Assembly: GCA_009840635.1 (NCBI GenBank) | Contig: VXNL01000047.1 | Coordinates: forward strand, 510-64,509 | Length of the DNA stretch: 64,000 bases | Source of the DNA: Acidobacteriota bacterium | GTDB taxonomy: Bacteria; Acidobacteriota; Vicinamibacteria; Marinacidobacterales; Marinacidobacteraceae | Reading direction: 5' to 3' | Shown here: positions 17,461 to 60,569 of the stretch, one piece after another | Position numbering within the stretch: the first letter of the stretch is position 1 | How the letters are laid out: every line of letters starts with the position of its first letter | Made by a program: the position numbers and the translations under genes | The notes under the pieces: generated by a model | What the model was told of the DNA's origin: nothing | The model's input: the letters and a program-made list of their open reading frames with translations, nothing else | The model's database searches: none

Positions 17461-17550
17461 GCGGCGATTATCGCCCGAGCCTGGCGCTGGCGCTGATCGG
17501 CGCGCCCGGATTCACTAGCAGCGCTCCGTCACGTCCACGATGGCAGCGCC

Positions 17551-17640
17551 GGTCTGGAAGGCCGGCTTCAGCCGGCACAGCGGGCCGCAGGCCCGCGGAC
17601 GACGTGCCGTCGTCCGCCTTGGGCGACGCAGGTAGGGGAA
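17551..17640. repeat. REP/MITE family A copy; left-arm half only, no right TIR
   Basis: ggtctggaaggccggcttcagccggcacagcgggccgcaggcccgcgg... matches the left half of the 36641-36801 element, including the gccggc-ttca-gccggc hairpin. Confidence 0.5.
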
Positions 17641-20710: not shown

Positions 20711-22870
20711 ATGTTCTCCGGCGTGAAAGGCCCGTTCCCGAAGCGCCTCGCGCTCGCGCTGGCGTTTGCGGCGCTGTCATTCACTGCGGCGCCCGCGCAG
20801 GACGGGTCGGATATCCGCAAGCAGGAAGCCGAGGCGCACTTCCAGCACGGCCTGCGCATGGTCGGCCTCCGGAACAACGACCGGGCCATCGAGCTCTTCC
20901 AGTACGCGATCGCGCTGGATCCGGACCATGCGGGCGCCCACTTTTACGTGGGCCTCGCCTACATCCAGCGCGGTTACACCAGCCTGCGGCGCGCCGACCA
21001 CCACCTCTCGCGCGCCATCGCGATTGACGGCTCGAACCCCAGGCAGTACCACTGGCGGGGCATCGCCCGATTGCGGCTCGGGGACTACCCGGCGGCCACC
21101 GCGGACTTCGAGGTGGTGCTGCGCGAGACCCCGGACAGCGCCACCACCCTGCGGGCGCTCGGGGCCGCGCTGCTCCGGATGGGCGCTCCCGGCCCGGCTG
21201 GCGCCGCACTACGCCAGGCGGTCGACCTCGAGCCCGAGTTGCTCGAGACGCGCTGGAACCTGATGGTGGCGGCGGAGCGCGCCGGCGACGATCCGGACGC
21301 GCTTCCGGAGCGCTACCGGCTCGACATCCCGGATCGTGGCCGAGAGTCTCCGTTCCGCTTCGAGGAAGTCTCGGCCGAGATCGGGATCGAACGCTGGTCG
21401 CGCGCCCGGGGCAGCGGGTGGGACGACTTCGACGGTGACGGGGACCTCGATCTGGTTGCCCTCGGTATCCGGGACCCGCACGCGCTCTACCGCAACCGGC
21501 TCGTGGAGGACGGCGACGCCACCTTCGAGGCAGCCTCGCTCGACGCGGCGCTCTTCGATCCGCGCGGCGGCTGGTCGGCGCTCTTCTTCGACTACGACCG
21601 GGACGGCGATCCCGATCTCCATGTCACGCGGGACGGCTGGGACGGTGAGGACGCGAACAGCCTCTATCGAAACGATGGCGGCCGCTTCGTGGACGTGGCG
21701 GCTGCCGCCGGGGTCGCGAGCTCGGCGGACGGGTTTACGGCAACGGTCGCCGACGTGAACCGGGACGGTCTGCTCGACCTCTACGTCGCCAACGGGGTGG
21801 CGACCCGGGGAGGCGCCCCCAACGAACTCTTTCTGGGCGCGCCGGACGGCCGTTTCGTCGAGCGCGGGGAGGCGATGGGGGTGGCGGACCACGGCCGCTC
21901 CGTCGGATCCGCCTTCGGGGACTACGACGGTGACGGCTGGCCCGACCTGCTGGTCGTCAACTTCTTCGACGGCCCCGTGCTCTACCGGAACCTGGAGGGC
22001 GGCGGTTTCGAGGACGTCTCGGCGCGAGCCGGCATCGCCGCTCCGCACGAGGGGTTCGTCGGGTTCTTCTTCGACTACGACAACGACGGCTGGCTGGATG
22101 TCTTCGTCGTGGGATTCGCGTCCGACATGGAGGTCGCCCTCCAGAGCCGGATCGAAGGCAGGGCGGTCCACGAAGGGAGCCGGCTGGCGCTCTACCGCAA
22201 CGACCGCGACGGCACCTTCACCGACGTCACGACCGAAGCCGGGCTCTCCTGGAACCTGGGCGCCATGGCGGCCACCTTCGGCGACTACGATAACGACGGC
22301 TGGCTGGACATCTTCATCGGCGTCGGCGCGCCGCCCATGGAGCGGTTCGAGGCGAACCGGCTGTTCCGCAACCTTGGTGACGGAACGTTCGCCGACGTCA
22401 GCGCCGCGGCCGGCGTGGACGACCTGGGGAAGGGGCACGGCGCGACCTTCGCCGACCCCGATCACGACGGCGACCTGGACCTCTTCGTGCCCATCGGGGG
22501 CGCGTTTCCGGGCGATCGCCAGCGAAGCCGCTTCTACCGGAACCCCGCGGCGCAGCTCCCGCATCCGAACGGCTGGCTACACATCCTGCTCCGGGCCACG
22601 AGTCTCCATCCCGACGCCGTGGGCGCCCAAGTCGCGGTCCGGGTCACCGACGCTCCGCAGGCGCCGGTGCAACTCCAGGAGGTCGCGGTCGGCGGGGGCT
22701 TTGGGGTGACGCCGAGTCCGATCCTGGAGTTCGGCCTCGGGCAGCACCAGACGGTGGCGGAGGTCACGATCCGGTGGCCGGGCGGCGGTCATCGCGTGCT
22801 GCGGAGCGTCCCCGCCAACCAGCGGATCCTGGTGGTCGAGGACCAACCGGGGTATCAGGTTCTGGAGTAG
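20711..22870 (+). CDS. CRTAC1-family protein: N-terminal TPR, FG-GAP/VCBS repeats, C-terminal ASPIC/UnbV domain
   Basis: 719 aa with a signal peptide, a TPR region (aa 30-190), repeated FGDYDGDGWPDL-like FG-GAP motifs and a UnbV_ASPIC-like C-terminus. Confidence 0.85.
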   Translation: MFSGVKGPFPKRLALALAFAALSFTAAPAQDGSDIRKQEAEAHFQHGLRMVGLRNNDRAIELFQYAIALDPDHAGAHFYVGLAYIQRGYTSLRRADHHLSRAIAIDGSNPRQYHWRGIARLRLGDYPAATADFEVVLRETPDSATTLRALGAALLRMGAPGPAGAALRQAVDLEPELLETRWNLMVAAERAGDDPDALPERYRLDIPDRGRESPFRFEEVSAEIGIERWSRARGSGWDDFDGDGDLDLVALGIRDPHALYRNRLVEDGDATFEAASLDAALFDPRGGWSALFFDYDRDGDPDLHVTRDGWDGEDANSLYRNDGGRFVDVAAAAGVASSADGFTATVADVNRDGLLDLYVANGVATRGGAPNELFLGAPDGRFVERGEAMGVADHGRSVGSAFGDYDGDGWPDLLVVNFFDGPVLYRNLEGGGFEDVSARAGIAAPHEGFVGFFFDYDNDGWLDVFVVGFASDMEVALQSRIEGRAVHEGSRLALYRNDRDGTFTDVTTEAGLSWNLGAMAATFGDYDNDGWLDIFIGVGAPPMERFEANRLFRNLGDGTFADVSAAAGVDDLGKGHGATFADPDHDGDLDLFVPIGGAFPGDRQRSRFYRNPAAQLPHPNGWLHILLRATSLHPDAVGAQVAVRVTDAPQAPVQLQEVAVGGGFGVTPSPILEFGLGQHQTVAEVTIRWPGGGHRVLRSVPANQRILVVEDQPGYQVLE

Positions 22871-22879
22871 CCGGTCGGC

Positions 22880-22924
22880 CTCGGAGCGCCAGCCTCCGGC
22901 TGGCATCGCGCGGGAGCGCGAAAC
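22880..22924. repeat. REP family B unit, forward: ctcggagcgccagcctccggctggcatcgcgcgggagcgcgaaac
   Basis: About 45 bp made of two tandem hairpins. An inverted partner lies at 23038-23085, and a third copy at 35675-35719. Confidence 0.55.
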
Positions 22925-23037
22925 CCGCACCTGCTGGCGCTCCTCCCCGTGAACGTGGGGCCGATGTTCGGCTTCTTCCGGGCGCCGTTGCGCCGGTCCG
23001 AGTTGGGGTCACGCTTTCGGAACCGGTCGAGGCGTGC

Positions 23038-23085
23038 GTTTCGCGGCCGACGGCCGCGATGCCGGCCGGAGGCCGGCGCTCCGAG
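23038..23085. repeat. REP family B unit, reverse orientation
   Basis: gtttcgcggccgacggccgcgatgccggccggaggccggcgctccgag is the reverse complement of the family B consensus. Together with 22880-22924 it brackets about 115 bp. Confidence 0.55.
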
Positions 23086-23151
23086 TTCACAGCCGTTTCC
23101 GCCATTCGCATCCGCAGTCGGCCCGGCCGCCCCCTTACGATACGAGCCGGC

Positions 23152-35665: not shown

Positions 35666-35674
35666 ACGCGGCGG

Positions 35675-35719
35675 TTCGGAGCGCCGGCCTCCGGCCGGCA
35701 TCGCGCGGTAGCGCGAAAC
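35675..35719. repeat. REP family B unit (third copy)
   Basis: ttcggagcgccggcctccggccggcatcgcgcggtagcgcgaaac lies directly after the DksA-family gene stop and may also serve as a terminator hairpin. Confidence 0.5.
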
Positions 35720-35764
35720 GAGCCCCCACAACCCCAAGCCAAGCGAACAGGGGCTGACCCACGG

Positions 35765-36556
35765 ATGGACCTCGGTATTACCGGCCGCGCCGCCGTCGTC
35801 GCCGCGGGAAGCCAGGGGCTCGGCCGCGCGGTCGCCGAAGCGCTGGCCGCGGAGGGGGCCCGGGTCGCCATCGGAGCGCGGGGCCGGGACGCCCTCGACC
35901 GCGCCGCCGCGGGGATCCGGGAACGCCACGGGGTGGAGGTCCTCGCCCACCCGGTGGACGTCGGCGATCCGGATGCCGCCTTCGGGTTCGTCCGGGCCGC
36001 GGAGGAGCGCTTCGGGCAGGTGGACATCCTGGTGACGAACGCCGGAGGGCCCCCGCCGACCCGGCTCAAGGACACGACGCCCCAGCAGTGGCGGGACGCG
36101 CTCGAGGCGAACCTGCTCTCCTGCGTGAACCTGGTACGCGCCGCCCTCCCGGGCATGATCGCCCGCCGCTGGGGGCGGATCCTCGCCATCGCCTCGGTCT
36201 CGGTGAAACAGCCGGTGCCGGACATCATCCTGTCCAACACCGCGCGATCCGGGATCGCCGGGTTCATGAAGTCGCTGGCCAACGAGGCGGCGCCCCATGG
36301 AGTGCTCGCCAACGTGCTCTGTCCCGGCTACACGCGGACCGCCCGGCTCGTCGAACTTGCCGACCACATAGCGGCGAGGCGCGGTTGTTCCGTGGACCAG
36401 GTGTACGCCGAATGGTCCGCGGACATCCCGCTCGGACGGGTCGGGGAACCCGAGGAGTTCGCCGCCGCGGCCGCCTTCCTCGTCTCCGAGCGCGCCAGTT
36501 ACATCACGGGGACGGTGCTCGCGGTGGACGGCGGCCACATCAAGAGCGTCACCTGA
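35765..36556 (+). CDS. SDR-family oxidoreductase (3-oxoacyl-ACP reductase-like)
   Basis: TGRAAVVAAGSQGLGRA Rossmann motif, NAG, and catalytic S...Y...K. Confidence 0.88.
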   Translation: MDLGITGRAAVVAAGSQGLGRAVAEALAAEGARVAIGARGRDALDRAAAGIRERHGVEVLAHPVDVGDPDAAFGFVRAAEERFGQVDILVTNAGGPPPTRLKDTTPQQWRDALEANLLSCVNLVRAALPGMIARRWGRILAIASVSVKQPVPDIILSNTARSGIAGFMKSLANEAAPHGVLANVLCPGYTRTARLVELADHIAARRGCSVDQVYAEWSADIPLGRVGEPEEFAAAAAFLVSERASYITGTVLAVDGGHIKSVT

Positions 36557-36640
36557 TTGCCCGGGCGCAGGTGGGCTCGGACTCCATGGCGTGGGCGGGA
36601 GGGTCGCGGAGCCGCGGGTTTTGTTGCCGTGATGGCGCCG

Positions 36641-36801
36641 CCGGCTTGGAACGCCGGCTTCAGCCGGCACAGCGGCCCGCAGGGCCGCGGGCGGGTTCGT
36701 CGCTACCCCGGGTGCACAGCCGCGCCATCCCGGCGAATGAGGTCCGTCTCGCCGCCCGCCTTGGGCGGGCTGTGCCGGCTGAAGCCGGCGTTCCAAGCCG
36801 G
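36641..36801. mobile_element. MITE-like element, 161 bp, with perfect 33-bp terminal inverted repeats (family A)
   Basis: Left TIR 36641-36673 ccggcttggaacgccggcttcagccggcacagc. Right TIR 36769-36801 is its exact reverse complement. Inside are the palindromes gcggcccgcagggccgc and ccgcccgccttgggcggg. It carries no ORF and sits in the 397-nt gap upstream of nuoL. Confidence 0.65.
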
Positions 36802-36953
36802 CGGACCACCGTGCTGGGTCAAGTGACGCGTCCCTTTGCGGCGGCGCCGCGCGGGTCTCCGAAATGGCTTCCCTACGTTGACCTAAACGCCCCGATCCGG
36901 TACCTTCCGCGCGCCGTCCAACCCCGTATTTCAGGAGTGCTCAGTAGCCCGTT

Positions 36954-42436: not shown

Positions 42437-42445
42437 GTCGGAACT

Positions 42446-42478
42446 GGTGTGAAACGGGCGAGCAGCCCGTTTCACACC
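42446..42478 (+). terminator. rho-independent terminator after atpE
   Basis: ggtgtgaaacgggc-GAGCA-gcccgtttcacacc forms a perfect 14-bp stem, starting 10 nt after the atpE stop. Confidence 0.6.
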
Positions 42479-42479
42479 A

Positions 42480-42670
42480 TTCCGACTCTGGGGGAACGCC
42501 GGTCTCCAGACCGGCAGAGCCGTTCGCGTCCGGCCGCCATGGATCTGGCGGTAGCCCAGATCCATGGCGACCGGCGCGTCGGCGAATTCGCACCCCCTCG
42601 ATCGCCTTCACCGCGACTACGGCTTGGAACGCCGGTCTCTAGACCGGCACGCGCGGCGCTTCGCGCCGCG
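42480..42670. repeat. array of REP-like palindromes (family A variants) in the atpE-mtnA intergenic gap
   Basis: Hairpins seen: ccggtctccagaccgg, ccatggatctggcggtagcccagatccatgg, ggcttggaacgccggtctctagaccggcac, gcggcgcttcgcgccgc. Confidence 0.45.
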
Positions 42671-42731
42671 TCGCAACCCCAATCATCCTCAAGGCGCGCA
42701 CCACTCCCCACCCCGCTGGTAGGGTGAACCC

Positions 42732-53652: not shown

Positions 53653-53689
53653 TCGGACGCTACGGACGGGCCAGGGACCGCCGGCCAGT

Positions 53690-53760
53690 CCTCCCGGTGG
53701 GGGCCTTCAGACCGGCATCGCCAAGCCTAAGGCTGGCGAAGCGCGCGGCACCGCGCTGTC
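53690..53760. repeat. REP-like palindromic element (hybrid of families A and B)
   Basis: tcccggtgggggccttcagaccggcatcgcc...gcgcgcggcaccgcgctg shares tcccggtggggg with 58985-59000 and ccggcatcgc with family B. Confidence 0.35.
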
Positions 53761-56378: not shown

Positions 56379-57898
56379 GGGCCGAGCGTACCCCGCCGAG
56401 GCTTCGGGTTCTCCCATACCGCGCTCACCGTCCAGCCGACGGCGACCTGGACCAGGAGCGACGCCGAGGCGACCCACTGGAAGCTCACCGGGTCGCCTCC
56501 GGTCTCGGGATCGAAACCGAAGATGGGTCCGGAGAAGGCGACGAGCGCCGCCGCGATGATGCCCGCCACGGTGCCGACGGTCGCTCCGACGGCCCGCACC
56601 CGGGGGATGAACAGCGCGAAAAGGAAGAGGCCGAAGATGGGTCCGGTCAGGAGGTTCGACGTCTTGGACGTCACCTCGGTGATGTTGCCGGGGACGAGGT
56701 CCATGAGGAAGCTGCCGAGCACGATGAGCCCCCCGGCCGCCGCGGCGAGCCAGCGGGCCTGCCGGAGGTCCCGCGCGTCGTCGCGCGGGCGCTTCCGGAA
56801 GCGGCCCACGAAGTCGGTCAACACCACCGCCGAGATCGAGTTGACCCCCGAGTCCACGCTGGACATGGCCGCCGCGAACATGGCGGCGACGACGAGTCCC
56901 GCAATGCCCGCCGGGAGCCGGTTGGCGATGAAGAACGGGAACACGTGGTCCGCGTCGGCCCGCAGCGACATGCCCGCCCCGAGCTGTCCCGGAAAGGCCT
57001 CGAAGTAGCCGAGGAGCGCTACCCCGACCAGCGCCAGCACGATCGTGACGACGGCGATGGCCAGGAGCTGGGTCCCGTAGGCCCGCCGGGCCGCCCGCAG
57101 ATCGGTCGTCGCCATGAATCGCTGCACCGAGACCTGGTCGCCGCCCGCGGTGGCCGCGTACCAGACCATCGTGGAGACCACCGTCCCGAACGCGGTCACC
57201 CGCACGGCCGGGTCGAAGCTGAAGATGGGCTGCGTGTCCCAGTTGGCCTGCCAGGTCGTCGGAAACCAGCCGAAACCGCCGAGTTCCACGGTCACGATGC
57301 CGAGCACGAGCAGCGCCCCTCCGAAGAGCAGCAGGGACTGGATGCAGTCGGTGACGACGACGGCCCGGAGGCCTCCCAGGGACGTGTAGATGACGGCCAC
57401 CGTCGCCGTGAACAGGACGACGAGCGGTACCGCGGAGGGGCCGGCGCCGATCATGACCGTCAGCGCCACCGCCGCCGCGTAGACCACGAGCGACATCCAG
57501 GCGAGCCGCAGGACGATGAACATCGAAGCGCCCAGGAGCCGCGCCCCGGTCCCGAGGCGCACTTCGAGGAGTTCGTAGGCGCTCGTCACCCGGTGCTTCA
57601 TGTAGACCGGAAGCAGCCCGTAGGCGACGACGACATAGACGAGGGGAAGCCCCAGGAGCTGGACGAGCAGCACCGGCCCGCGCCCGAGCGTCTCTCCCGG
57701 CACGGACAGGTAGGACACCGTGCTCACGAGCGTCGCGAACAGCGAGACGCCGACGGCCACGGGGTGGAGCCGGCCGCCGCCGATGAAGTACTCCTTCGTC
57801 GAGGACTGGCGCCGGCCGTAGTGCCAGCCGAGCCAGAGGGTGAGGCCCGCATAGGCGGCGAGCACGAGCCAGTCGACGGCGGCCAGGCCTTGATTCAT
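56375..57898 (-). CDS. sodium:solute symporter family transporter
   Basis: Internal ATG (CAT at 57896-57898) with a GAGGA SD 7 nt upstream. 507 aa with about 13 TM helices. The 16 upstream ORF-track codons lack an SD. Confidence 0.85.
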   Translation of the reverse strand: MNQGLAAVDWLVLAAYAGLTLWLGWHYGRRQSSTKEYFIGGGRLHPVAVGVSLFATLVSTVSYLSVPGETLGRGPVLLVQLLGLPLVYVVVAYGLLPVYMKHRVTSAYELLEVRLGTGARLLGASMFIVLRLAWMSLVVYAAAVALTVMIGAGPSAVPLVVLFTATVAVIYTSLGGLRAVVVTDCIQSLLLFGGALLVLGIVTVELGGFGWFPTTWQANWDTQPIFSFDPAVRVTAFGTVVSTMVWYAATAGGDQVSVQRFMATTDLRAARRAYGTQLLAIAVVTIVLALVGVALLGYFEAFPGQLGAGMSLRADADHVFPFFIANRLPAGIAGLVVAAMFAAAMSSVDSGVNSISAVVLTDFVGRFRKRPRDDARDLRQARWLAAAAGGLIVLGSFLMDLVPGNITEVTSKTSNLLTGPIFGLFLFALFIPRVRAVGATVGTVAGIIAAALVAFSGPIFGFDPETGGDPVSFQWVASASLLVQVAVGWTVSAVWENPKPRRGTLGP

Positions 57899-57948: not shown

Positions 57949-58884
57949 ATGACTCCGGCGGACGCCAAGCGCACCATCTGTGGACCGCTGATTCCGGTCA
58001 TCACCAACTACGCGGACGACCTCAGCGTCGATCACGACGCTATCCGGGAGAACGTCAACTATGTCGTGGACCGGGGTGTCCGCACGGGGAGCGGGGTGCT
58101 CCTGGCCGCCGGCGCCGGGGGTGACTTTCCGATGCTGACGCTCGACGAGCGAAAGGCGGTGAGCGAGACCATCGTGCGGGCCGCGGACGGCCGGACGCCC
58201 GTGCTCGTCGGGGCCCAGGACACGAACCCCGCGGTGTCCGTCGAGCTCGCGCGCTTCGCCGAGGACATCGGCGCCTGGGGCATCCAGCTTGCGCCGGGCT
58301 ACTACTACGAGTCGTCTCCCGAAGACTGCTACCGGCTGTTCGAGACGGTGCACGAAGCCACCAGCACGCTGGGGATCATGGTCTACAACACGCACTGGGA
58401 GGCCTACGACATGTCGCTCGACGACGTCGAGCGGCTCGCCGAGCTACCGCGCTGCCTTGCCCTCAAATGGTCGACCGCGCGCGGCACCCTGGACTACCAG
58501 CGCGGGGTCGTGCGCTTCCGGGACCGCTTGGCCGTCATCGACAACCACGGTCTCCAGGGCCTGACCCACATGCTCGGCGGGCGGGGATACATCACCCACC
58601 TGTGTACCGTCTGGCCCGAGCATGACCTCGAGGTCTTTCGGTTGATGGAAGCGGGCGAGTACGCCCGGGCGCAGGAGCTGTTGAGCACGGTCAACTGGCC
58701 GTGGTACGACTTCCGGGTGCGGATGTGGCGCCGCACCGGGGCGGAGAGCCCCGTCGTCAACGCGGCGCTCGAGCTGACCGGGCGTAAAGGCGGCCCGAGC
58801 CGGCTTCCCACCCGCCGCCTCGACGAGTCCGAGCGCGAGGAGCTCAGAACGCTTCTTTCCGAGATCGCGGTGCCGGGCGTTTAG
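57949..58884 (+). CDS. dihydrodipicolinate synthase / N-acetylneuraminate lyase family (DapA-like class I aldolase)
   Basis: 311 aa with an AAAGGAGA SD. It shows the DapA-family fold: GTGVLLAAGAGGDF and a Schiff-base lysine region. It is divergent from the SSF transporter. Confidence 0.8.
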   Translation: MTPADAKRTICGPLIPVITNYADDLSVDHDAIRENVNYVVDRGVRTGSGVLLAAGAGGDFPMLTLDERKAVSETIVRAADGRTPVLVGAQDTNPAVSVELARFAEDIGAWGIQLAPGYYYESSPEDCYRLFETVHEATSTLGIMVYNTHWEAYDMSLDDVERLAELPRCLALKWSTARGTLDYQRGVVRFRDRLAVIDNHGLQGLTHMLGGRGYITHLCTVWPEHDLEVFRLMEAGEYARAQELLSTVNWPWYDFRVRMWRRTGAESPVVNAALELTGRKGGPSRLPTRRLDESEREELRTLLSEIAVPGV

Positions 58885-58963
58885 GGGGCGTCAACCCTCG
58901 GCCGATCTTCCGCGAGGGCGCACGAGGGCGCGCGGCGGCGCGCCGCCCGCGGCGCTGCGCGCT

Positions 58964-59020
58964 GCTGTGCCGGCTGAAGCCGGCCCAGTTCTCCCGGTGG
59001 GGGCTCCAAGCCGTTTCCGC
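58964..59020. repeat. REP family A copy, right-arm orientation
   Basis: gctgtgccggctgaagccggcccagttctcccggtgggggctccaagccgtttccgcc equals the right TIR of the 36641-36801 element plus the tcccggtggggg motif. Confidence 0.45.
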
Positions 59021-59085
59021 CCCTTGATGGCGCGATGGGTGTGCAGGAGGACCCGATCAGGCGGGTTCCTTCCGCGGGGGATTCG

Positions 59086-60486
59086 CTAACGCGTGGCGTG
59101 GCGGGCGACGACGGTAGCGACGGCTTCCGTGAGGCGCTTGGCGTAGGCGATCTCCAGGAACTCGTTCGGTCCGTGGGCGTTCGAGTTCGGGCCGAGCACG
59201 CCGGTGATCACGAACTGCGCCTCGGGGAACTGCTCGCCGAGCATGCCCATGAAGGGGATCGACCCGCCCTCGCCCATGTACATGGCTGGTTTGCCGTAGG
59301 CGCCCATGGAGGCGTCGTGGAGGGCGTCGCCGAGCCAGGGCGCGAGCGCCGGGGCGGACCAGCCCTGCGCGGGCTCGTGGAAGTGCACGGTGACCTTCGC
59401 GCCGTAGGGCGGATCCGGTTCGACGACTTCCCGGATCGCCTCCTGCGCCGCGCGGGGGTCCACCGTCGGGGGAAGCCGGATGGAGAGGTTCAGCGTCACC
59501 TGGGGCAGCAGGACGTTGCCGGCCTTTTCGAGCGACGGCAACCCGCCCTGTCCGGTCACCGCCAGGTTCGGGCGCCAGGTGCGGTTCAGGATGAGTTCGC
59601 TGGTGGGGACTCCCGGTCGCCCGGTGCTTCCCGCCCAGGGAAAGCGCGTGAAGGTGTCCGCGCCCAGGGTCTCGGCCGCCGCCTCCGCCTGCGCGATCCG
59701 TTCCGCGGGGATCTCGGCGTGGAGCGCCTCGGGAATGATGCGGTCCGTCACCGGGTCCTCGAGCCGATCGAGCAGCTTGCGCAGGATGAGGAAGGGCGGG
59801 GGGACGACCCCGCCGGCGTCGCCGGAGTGGACGCCCTCGGTGAGCACCTCCGCCTGCAGGGTGCCGCCCACCATCCCGCGGAGTGAGGTCGTGGACCAGA
59901 GCTGGTCGTAGTTGCCGGCGCCCGAGTCGAGGCAGATCACCAGGTCGGGGCTGCCGATGACGTCGGCGAAGGACTCCATGTAGGCGGGCAGGTCCGGGGA
60001 GCCGCTCTCCTCGGAGAACTCGACGAGCAGGACTACGCGCGCCCGCTTCTTCCCCTCGCGGCGCACCACCTCGAGCGCCGCGAGCGCGCAGTAGAGGGCG
60101 TACCCGTCGTCCGCCCCGCCCCGCCCGTAGAGCTTGTCGCCCTCGCGGACCGGGCTCCAGGGCCCGAGCCCCTCCCGCCAGCCGACCATCTCGGGCTGCT
60201 TGTCGAGGTGGCCGTACATCAGGATCGTGCCGTCCGCCTCACCCGGGCAGTCGAGCAGCAGCAGGGGCGTCCTTCCCGGAATCCGTCCCACGTGGAGGGT
60301 CGCGTCGTCCGGAGCGTGCTTCTCCATGAACGCCTTGCCCATCTGGAGCGCGTCCTCCATGTGGCCGTTCGCCTCCCAGTCCGGGTCGAACAGCACCGAG
60401 ACGTTGGGGACGGCGACGTACTCGGTGAGGGAGGGGAGGATCTCGTCCTCCCAGAAACGGTCCAGGAACTCGCGGGTGTCCGTCAT
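59086..60486 (-). CDS. M20-family metallopeptidase (dipeptidase / carboxypeptidase-like)
   Basis: Internal ATG (CAT at 60484-60486). Motifs: HLDKQP, GRGGADDGYAL, E.SEESGS. 466 aa. Confidence 0.85.
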   Translation of the reverse strand: MTDTREFLDRFWEDEILPSLTEYVAVPNVSVLFDPDWEANGHMEDALQMGKAFMEKHAPDDATLHVGRIPGRTPLLLLDCPGEADGTILMYGHLDKQPEMVGWREGLGPWSPVREGDKLYGRGGADDGYALYCALAALEVVRREGKKRARVVLLVEFSEESGSPDLPAYMESFADVIGSPDLVICLDSGAGNYDQLWSTTSLRGMVGGTLQAEVLTEGVHSGDAGGVVPPPFLILRKLLDRLEDPVTDRIIPEALHAEIPAERIAQAEAAAETLGADTFTRFPWAGSTGRPGVPTSELILNRTWRPNLAVTGQGGLPSLEKAGNVLLPQVTLNLSIRLPPTVDPRAAQEAIREVVEPDPPYGAKVTVHFHEPAQGWSAPALAPWLGDALHDASMGAYGKPAMYMGEGGSIPFMGMLGEQFPEAQFVITGVLGPNSNAHGPNEFLEIAYAKRLTEAVATVVARHATR

Positions 60487-60569
60487 GGCGGCGATTGTAG
60501 GACGCGGGGGGAGAGGCGGCCGGCGCTCCGAGCGGTTGCTCCGGTAGAGTGGCCAGCGGCCGGAAGCCA

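Follow-up and report, generated by a model that had tools for sequence, protein, structure and literature searches.

The 64,000-nucleotide stretch of acidobacterial DNA analyzed here (the window) carries a palindromic non-coding element between a gene for a short-chain dehydrogenase/reductase (SDR) and nuoL. Positions 36626-36811 probably represent a full-length, feet-outward inverted doublet of a new repeat family of the repetitive extragenic palindrome (REP) and bacterial interspersed mosaic element (BIME) type, resembling the REP doublets forming hairpins (REPINs), in a clade of Vicinamibacteria-like Acidobacteriota. The repeated unit is an arm of about 50 nt, not the 161-bp element at 36641-36801 that an earlier note had described as a miniature inverted-repeat transposable element (MITE). 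Loci from other assemblies that were compared with the window are labeled with L-numbers.

The layout of the arm emerges from a reading of about 90 diverse copies: a foot (C-Y-N-GGA-R-C), a GC hairpin of 6-8 bp (hairpin A), an AC or AT tail, and a second GC hairpin (hairpin B). Foot and hairpin A together span about 28 nt. The sequence of hairpin B falls into several unrelated subfamilies, and a strong hairpin B (dG ≤ -12) follows 95% of arms. Arms often end in GAAAC or GGAAC, also in GCACG, and have no U-tract. In 884 kb, 329 arms were counted, the most frequent feet being CTTGGAAC (136), CTTGGAGC (26), CTGGGAGC (22), CCTGGAAC (22), CCGGGAGC (16), and CTCGGAGC (14), with others making up the remainder. 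A looser search accepting any stem returned 366 hits in the real loci versus 34 in mononucleotide-shuffled DNA.

It is hairpin A itself, not its sequence, that is conserved, because compensatory stem variants pair while recombined halves do not. When nothing but the foot, the tail, and the outer GCC...GGC was used to define sites, 326 were obtained, and in 94.5% of them the four inner stem positions show perfect complementarity. Nine stem pairs account for this complementarity: GGCT/AGCC (186), GGTC/GACC (70), GGCC/GGCC (24), GGTG/CACC (11), GACC/GGTC (7), GCTC/GAGC (5), and three rarer ones. Once halves are recombined between stem variants, pairing is found in only 8.9%.

At the window locus, the sequence is as the earlier note described it, except that the perfect arms measure 36 nt and not 33: positions 36638-36673 are the exact reverse complement of 36769-36804. 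Imperfect pairing prolongs the inverted repeat to 53 nt at 85% (36638-36690/36752-36804). The chance expectation for a 36-nt inverted repeat is zero. A 34-nt arm pattern occurs without mismatches at 36640-36673 (+) and 36769-36802 (-) and with three mismatches at 17548-17581, and it found no match in 100 dinucleotide-preserving shuffles (0/100). The single strand folds with -144.6 kcal/mol as RNA (z = -8.7 versus shuffles) and -85 kcal/mol as DNA (z = -9.2). The doublet joins two unit subtypes into a heterodimer; they have the foot and hairpin A in common and differ in hairpin B and in their halves of the spacer (Table 1). Its spacer is about 11 internal nucleotides (GCATTGGCGCGC) shorter than in most other aligned copies. 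Outside the left arm, the motif GATGGCGC-N4 is the tail of an 81-nt unit known from tandem arrays.

The family is dispersed and clearly proliferating. An exact scan of one genome per species for the core 21-mer GCCGGCTTCAGCCGGCACAGC found it in at least 107 8-kb tiles from at least 10 assemblies, which are Vicinamibacteria-type Acidobacteriota genomes. Among the matches listed, 32 tiles belong to the complete Vicinamibacteria chromosome OY821641.1, where their positions range between 32 kb and 3.53 Mb, and 19 to OZ220713.1; the remaining listed tiles come from other Acidobacteriota metagenome-assembled genomes and a few probably mis-binned contigs. Viral contigs and plasmids contained no copies. 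BLAST with the element returned 57 hits that were 140 nt or longer, besides 290 partial ones. Partial hits form discrete classes, covering either the left arm with the first hairpin or the 81-nt right half. Alignment of 46 full-length copies showed 75-92% identity to the window copy. For comparison, the window is 89-93% identical to OY821641.1 where alignable and 100% identical to contig VXVZ01000017.1 of GCA_009836105.1 over 6.8 kb.

Within its 64 kb, the window holds eight intact and two interrupted arms. BLAST located relatives at 17539-17618, 58910-58984 (minus strand), and 42604-42670, and direct reading with motif searches located those at 42493, 42626, and 53671-53758. The relatives that had been listed earlier in the 17551, 58964, 42480, and 53690 regions are thereby borne out, as are the non-coding, dispersed, and multi-copy nature of the element and its position between the SDR gene and nuoL. 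They had been taken for decayed copies; most are intact single units of sister subfamilies. A doublet at 22879-23103, 82% identical to L099 1434-1656, and a singlet at 35674-35726 were absent from that list. All window copies, including those listed before, are intergenic according to calls based on open reading frames (ORFs) and GC content at third codon positions (GC3).

Arms are assembled in many ways. Neighboring arms form 76 feet-outward inverted pairs (64 homodimers and 12 heterodimers) versus five feet-inward pairs, and a further 67 neighbors are in tandem, mostly as different subtypes. The two arms of a heterodimer could not pair with each other. In feet-outward doublets, the spacer is conserved within a subfamily. 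Tandem arrays comprise 2.6 copies of an 81-nt unit in L074 and 2.9 copies of a 316-nt composite in L089. Moreover, the flanks of full-length copies are repeat modules themselves: M1 (CCAGTTGCTGTGAAAATGCAGTCC...GCCGTGATGGCGCCGCC) on one or both sides, M2 (GTTTCCGCCGTTTTCATGACCGGCGGGGTGYGCAGGAGGAC-N6-ATG...), and a module of 19-20 nt (CCAGTYCTCCCGGTGGGGGC) that also lies inside arms at window positions 53685-53704 and 58985-59003. The latter insert is the 19-nt version of the former, and the interruption of the 53671-53758 arm is also conserved in OY821641.1. This mosaic organization is that of BIMEs or REP clusters and not that of a unit transposon.

Some associated features deserve separate mention. 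Module M2, at window positions 59014-59075 and many other loci (L007 3414-3512, L096 1518, L103 2510), contains a Shine-Dalgarno-like GGAGGA with an ATG 6 nt on. It was considered as the start of a transposase gene and rejected, the ORFs past the ATG being short and inconsistent and M2 forming facing inverted pairs; because of these pairs, M2 is probably structural. Single small accessory genes of toxin-antitoxin type, encoding a nucleotidyltransferase, a PIN domain, a ParE toxin, and a Uma2 nuclease, are flanked by arms in L001 (7062-7448), L035 (3771-4232), L079 (1117-1503), and L045 (991-1998). An analogy with integron attC sites was discarded; the core-site consensus does not fit and copies are scattered among housekeeping genes.

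Close relatives differ in occupancy and subtype at orthologous sites, so these features change on a short time scale. At the SDR-nuoL site, L110 and L111 (from a long-read assembly, with an SDR protein 94% identical) have the same arms and junctions around a different interior of 212 nt. The short-read scaffold L117, from the same population (99.97% identical), is without exactly 36644-36811 (168 nt), shows CCG microhomology at both junctions, and retains the GATGGCGCCGCCG flank, the outer flank at 36626-36643 being kept. Because the outgroup is filled, this short allele is best read as a secondary hairpin-mediated deletion. In the spacer between dksA and the SDR gene, the window has a type-B arm, L110 a type-C arm, and L112 no arm. 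Directly after the same stop codon, L059 has a type-A doublet versus a type-C singlet in L075. OY821641.1 carries a heterodimeric doublet in a divergent promoter region (L078 6646-6847) and a type-C doublet (L024 6764-6938), with none in the window at 57877-57898 and 60506-60520, respectively. In the same chromosome, a composite of about 290 nt is nested in the arm at 58985.

Several observations at these sites stand beside the comparison. Window positions 60485-60520 keep only GGAGAGGCG-GCCGGC-GCTCCGAG, two feet around half a stem; this palindrome is the footprint of a deletion or else a small palindromic target. The 206-nt convergent intergenic region at 58880-59086 corresponds to about 13.5 kb in OY821641.1 (approximately 175,825-189,343, from the end of L078 to L024 1-5343), and the extra segment has arm clusters at both borders. 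SDR orthologs at 76-85% identity (L122-L125) have no type-A arms there and other downstream genes. The 3' flank of the SDR gene is thus a synteny breakpoint, since the downstream gene differs between lineages: nuoL in that of the window, topoisomerase I in L124, and a 202-aa protein with an AAA_15/AAA_21 ATPase in L122, L123, and L125. In L122, a different repeat (GGCTGTGGAGAAAGTCCCTCG...GGGGAGGGGTGCGGGGAG) lies before and after the SDR gene. Short-read contigs of this and related populations (L112-L114, L116, L117, and L119-L121) end inside or at the element, just after the SDR gene, and L116 (GCA_009844305.1) ends in error-ridden C/G-rich sequence. The hairpin of the element is an obstacle to assembly and sequencing.

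Arms are almost confined to intergenic DNA, with a preference for sites past stop codons. Of 143 arm clusters, 130 are intergenic, and the regions that hold them are convergent, tandem, and divergent in 54, 62, and 14 cases versus 88, 257, and 79 in the background (chi-square p = 8.6e-6). In 132 of 170 cases, the arm closest to a stop codon has the same orientation as the gene, and about 39% of such arms are no more than 50 nt away from the stop. Where an isolated arm lies between co-directional genes, it tends to share their direction (19 co-oriented versus 6 opposed, p = 0.015); a replication-strand bias, judged by tile GC skew, was not significant (15 versus 8). As arms are co-oriented with the upstream gene, a feet-outward doublet therefore offers a forward arm to transcription from both sides. 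Position and orientation tentatively suggest a transcript-end role, in which the arm hairpins might act on host transcripts as 3'-end stabilizing or terminating structures. At the window locus, they could insulate the SDR gene (35765-36556) from the operon of nuoL and then nuoM on the other side, of which 143 nt of upstream sequence lie outside the element. The identity of nuoL is given by NCBIfam NF005141 (709.8 bits versus a cut-off of 556).

Such placement is also what would be expected if the repeats were host-selected transcript-end elements (terminators, mRNA 3' stabilizers, or sites for nucleoid or RNA-binding proteins) that spread by recombination and gene conversion only. This explanation fits the strong excess of arms in convergent regions and past stop codons, their tendency to be oriented like the upstream gene, and the lack of a transposase in the sampled DNA, and different subtypes at the same site in relatives are expected of conversion between copies. 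However, conversion cannot seed new loci, yet copies occupy hundreds of unrelated sites, and their presence differs between genomes that are 91-93% identical. The hairpins have no U-tract, and the conserved foot and tail around a covarying hairpin resemble a recognition and cleavage site for a protein. The direction of the G-U asymmetry considered below does not favor the forward RNA either. Host selection without mobilization is unlikely.

The suggestion that the window element could carry promoter or terminator signals found no support, as it contains no sigma-70-like promoter and a terminator scan detected no hairpin with a U-tract (intrinsic terminator) inside it. A sigma-54 or extracytoplasmic function (ECF) promoter reading of TGGAAC-N-... 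was rejected on inspection, the -12 element lacking GC and the spacing being wrong. One terminator-like site exists in the region, at 36604-36617, just upstream of the element. A hairpin and T-run (TCGCGGAGCCGCGG GTTTTGTT) at 36604-36626 directly precede the element, and this hairpin may serve as the terminator of the SDR gene itself or represent a degenerate M1 module.

A classical MITE would derive from an insertion sequence (IS) by internal deletion, as a unit of 161-170 bp whose terminal inverted repeats (TIRs) are bound by a DDE transposase that makes target-site duplications. The perfect 36-nt inverted termini, the non-coding length of about 165 nt, and the many full-length copies at 75-92% identity are in keeping with this description, and the element interrupts short-read contigs in the way that mobile repeats do. 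Target-site duplications were sought in 45-74 doublets by three kinds of search with mismatched left/right controls, and they were not found at any offset or length. For k = 3-5 and offsets of 0-30 nt, the best result was 6 of 45 copies versus 1.9 expected. The longest common substring of the flanks averages 6.47 versus 6.24 in controls, and the Smith-Waterman score averages 8.3 versus 7.2 with a single outlier. One doublet, in L078, does have a flanking direct repeat of 23 nt, which a MITE could explain. Arms nevertheless exist independently as singlets, tandem arrays, and heterodimers, and sequence conservation does not stop at the TIR ends but runs on into further repeat modules. No parent IS with the same termini and no cognate transposase were seen in the window and about 0.9 Mb of loci around copies. 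Of the MITE interpretation, the non-autonomous, dispersed, and unstable character is retained, while the mechanism and the choice of unit are not, and the label itself is improbable. Neisseria Correia elements are likewise about 100-160 bp long, intergenic, bounded by TIRs, and able to fold into a long hairpin in transcripts. They have defined ends and a TA target duplication, unlike the present family, which lacks target-site duplications and has arms that are independent units.

A family of structured RNA genes (small RNAs or cis-regulatory RNAs) in place of DNA-level repeats is very improbable. The very stable fold (z about -9), the compensatory changes in hairpin A, and the orientation bias relative to genes would suit such genes. 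On the other side, there is no promoter-like site, the structure is symmetric on both strands, and copy number, mosaics, tandem arrays, and inverted doublets are traits of repeats. No Rfam family reached its gathering score in the whole window, and at E ≤ 10 the element had only chance-level matches (E about 8). Finally, a one-off local palindromic duplication, resembling sequences elsewhere by chance, would explain the palindrome itself and nothing more, and it is refuted by hundreds of copies in many genomes, which also removes the concern that the element occurs only here.

The REP/BIME-type reading leaves the question of how the units move. REP, REPIN, and BIME sequences of Proteobacteria such as E. 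coli and Pseudomonas are mobilized by REP-associated tyrosine transposases (RAYT, TnpA_REP) of the HUH type. The present units may be spread and reshuffled in trans by an enzyme recognizing foot and hairpin on single-stranded DNA, for which an HUH Y1 endonuclease of the RAYT or class 3 TnpA_Y1 type would be the likeliest candidate, and hairpin-mediated slippage and gene conversion could add to the turnover. Mobilization of the family by an HUH endonuclease is a working proposal, held with some reserve.

The parallels with REP sequences are extensive. REPs, short tagged palindromes located mainly downstream of genes, occur singly, in clusters, or as head-to-head (HH) or tail-to-tail (TT) dimers that may be homo- or heterodimeric, and the spacers of HH dimers, 20-100 bp long, are usually conserved (Di Nocera et al., 2013, PMC3733652). 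Like them, the present units are extragenic, mostly downstream of genes, and present in hundreds of copies, each with a short GC palindrome and a conserved 5' foot; they form singlets, HH dimers, heterodimers, clusters, and mosaics without target-site duplications, and several subfamilies are co-resident. Unlike described REPs, they have two consecutive hairpins per unit, an Acidobacteriota host, and no sequence similarity, and unlike REP systems, they have no RAYT gene in the sampled DNA.

Two acidobacterial systems come closer in host. Class 3 TnpA_Y1 HUH proteins occur mainly in Planctomycetes and Acidobacteria, also in Legionella, and the genes that encode them are bordered by ‘atypical’ GC-rich REP-like hairpins with a CnGA foot, of which about 600 copies exist in Solibacter usitatus (Quentin et al., 2018, PMC6006769). 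In Table S1 of that study, CGGAGC and CAGAGC directly precede the GC hairpin in S. usitatus. The present family belongs to the same phylum, and its type-B foot CGGAGC equals the S. usitatus hexamer. Its commonest foot, the type-A TGGAAC, lacks the C of CnGA, however, the stem and loop differ (CGCGACC-GTAA-GGGAGCG in S. usitatus versus GCCGG..CCGGC here), and a class 3 gene was not found in the sampled DNA. The resemblance of the feet hints at the likely enzyme but does not demonstrate it. In Acidobacteria, inverted-repeat families also accompany RAYT-like TIRYT genes (‘TIRtron’) (Di Nocera et al., 2013, PMC3733652), and these moderately abundant families share with the present one their singlets, dimers, and clusters. 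Some M2 copies contain GGGGTGAG, which fits the TIRYT motif GGGGWSAS; the match is weak, most copies reading GGGGTGYG, and no TIRYT gene was seen in the sampled DNA. No description of this repeat family in Vicinamibacteria was found in the literature.

Several points weigh against the REP/BIME-type reading and its mobilization by such an enzyme. The defining REP tag GT[AG]G is not at the foot, where CTTGGAAC, CTCGGAGC, CTGGGAGC and similar sequences stand; within the window element, GTAG is confined to the spacer, 12 nt from any hairpin. The window, the 107 tiles, and 12 further loci yielded neither a RAYT gene nor another Y1 gene, a negative that is weak for a trans-acting enzyme, as about 6% of each complete chromosome was sampled. 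In the same vein, tblastn with an E. coli RayT query had no match below E = 3 across some 0.9 Mb of DNA surrounding copies, no ORF in the sampled DNA had the HUH...Y motifs of RAYT and class 3 types (NHVH ... YV[VI]xEQ for class 3), Pfam detected no transposase among single genes bracketed by arms, and clustering of 532 predicted proteins revealed no transposase-like multi-copy gene near arms. The direct repeat at the flanks of L078 6646-6847 (GGCGGCCAGGCCCTGGTTCATCC/GGCGGCCAGACCCTGTTTCATCC) is imperfect, includes the start codon of a minus-strand gene, and is the only case among 74 doublets. L117, the sole ‘empty’ allele at the SDR-nuoL site, lies at a scaffold end of a short-read assembly and could have arisen as an artefact of the library or the assembly. 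Copies were collected with an exact 21-mer from a single subtype, and the context counts rest on crude gene calls (stop-to-stop ORFs filtered on GC3). Lastly, G-U pairs are commoner on the reverse strand (330/4008) than on the arm-forward strand (210/3761), a small asymmetry in an unexpected direction that is inconclusive and does not favor RNA-level selection on the forward strand.

Table 1. Parts of the doublet at the SDR-nuoL locus and further copies of the repeat family in the window.
Feature	Position	Strand	Evidence or context
Conserved outer flank GCCGTGATGGCGCCGCCG (GATGGCGC-N4 ahead of foot)	36626-36643	+	Left and/or right of most of 46 aligned copies
Left arm, perfect 36-nt inverted repeat	36638-36673	+	
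Left foot GGCTTGGAAC (family consensus C-Y-N-GGA-R-C)	36643-36652	+	Foot census
Hairpin A left, GCCGGC-TTCA-GCCGGC, then AC tail	36653-36668	+	Pairing at anchor-defined sites
Hairpin B left, GCGGCCC-GCA-GGGCCGC	36672-36688	+	
Spacer, conserved within subfamily	36689-36753	none	Alignment of full-length copies
Hairpin B right, GCCCGCC-TTG-GGCGGGC, subtype unlike left hairpin B	36754-36770	-	
Right arm, perfect 36-nt inverted repeat	36769-36804	-	Hairpin A 36774-36789; foot GTTCCAAGCC 36790-36799
Degenerate outer flank GGCGGACCACCG	36800-36811	-	
Single type-A arm (foot, hairpin A, hairpin B, third hairpin)	17551-17616	+	Divergent intergenic region
Feet-outward doublet of type-B arms, GCCAGCC-TCC-GGCTGGC / GCCGGCC-TCC-GGCCGGC	22879-23103	none	Downstream of gene ending 22870
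Single type-B arm	35674-35726	+	10 nt past stop of dksA-like gene
Single type-C arm (GCCGGTCT-CC-AGACCGGC) and hairpins	42488-42588	+	After nuo-cluster gene
Single type-C arm (GCCGGTCT-CT-AGACCGGC) and hairpin B	42621-42672	+	
Type-C arm, hairpin A split by 20-nt module CCAGTCCTCCCGGTGGGGGC (53685-53704)	53671-53758	+	
Type-A arm (hairpin A 58969-58984), 19-nt module (58985-59003) between hairpin and foot, then degenerate M2	58910-59075	-	

Two other repeated structures of the window were encountered. A long near-perfect hairpin, GTCGGAACTGGTGTGAAACGGGC-GAGCA-GCCCGTTTCACACCATTCCGAC (42437-42487), stands straight after the stop of a nuo-cluster gene and before a type-C arm, and it is similar to module M1 in its GTGTGAAA core. 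At 21583-22342, inside the long ORF at 20711-22870, three diverged 67-nt direct repeats encode a FFDYD.DG-like motif; they are an internal protein repeat, unrelated to the palindromic family.

A further-reaching reading is that the family constitutes a new REP superfamily, with a YGGARC foot and a two-hairpin unit, mobilized by class 3 HUH enzymes, whose copies serve as orientation-dependent transcript-end signals and as exchange breakpoints for accessory genes and larger segments. As a whole this is doubtful. If it is true, streamlined symbiont genomes would possess a hairpin-bounded system for cassette shuffling, acting on genes such as those for PIN, ParE, nucleotidyltransferase, and Uma2 proteins and on segments such as that of 13.5 kb.

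At the SDR-nuoL locus itself the consequence is modest. The element lies between the SDR stop and the conserved upstream region of nuoL, where it probably only insulates two transcription units. For the group as a whole, the family extends REP/BIME-type organization to Vicinamibacteria-like bacteria. If the density in the window holds genome-wide, each genome would have several hundred arms, and the repeats would therefore be a main cause of short-read contig breaks in these uncultured, sponge- and soil-associated Acidobacteriota. They are also a source of false ‘novel RNA’ or ‘MITE’ calls. The foot and hairpin A, with their natural compensatory variants, provide a concrete substrate on which the poorly known class 3 HUH endonucleases could be tested.

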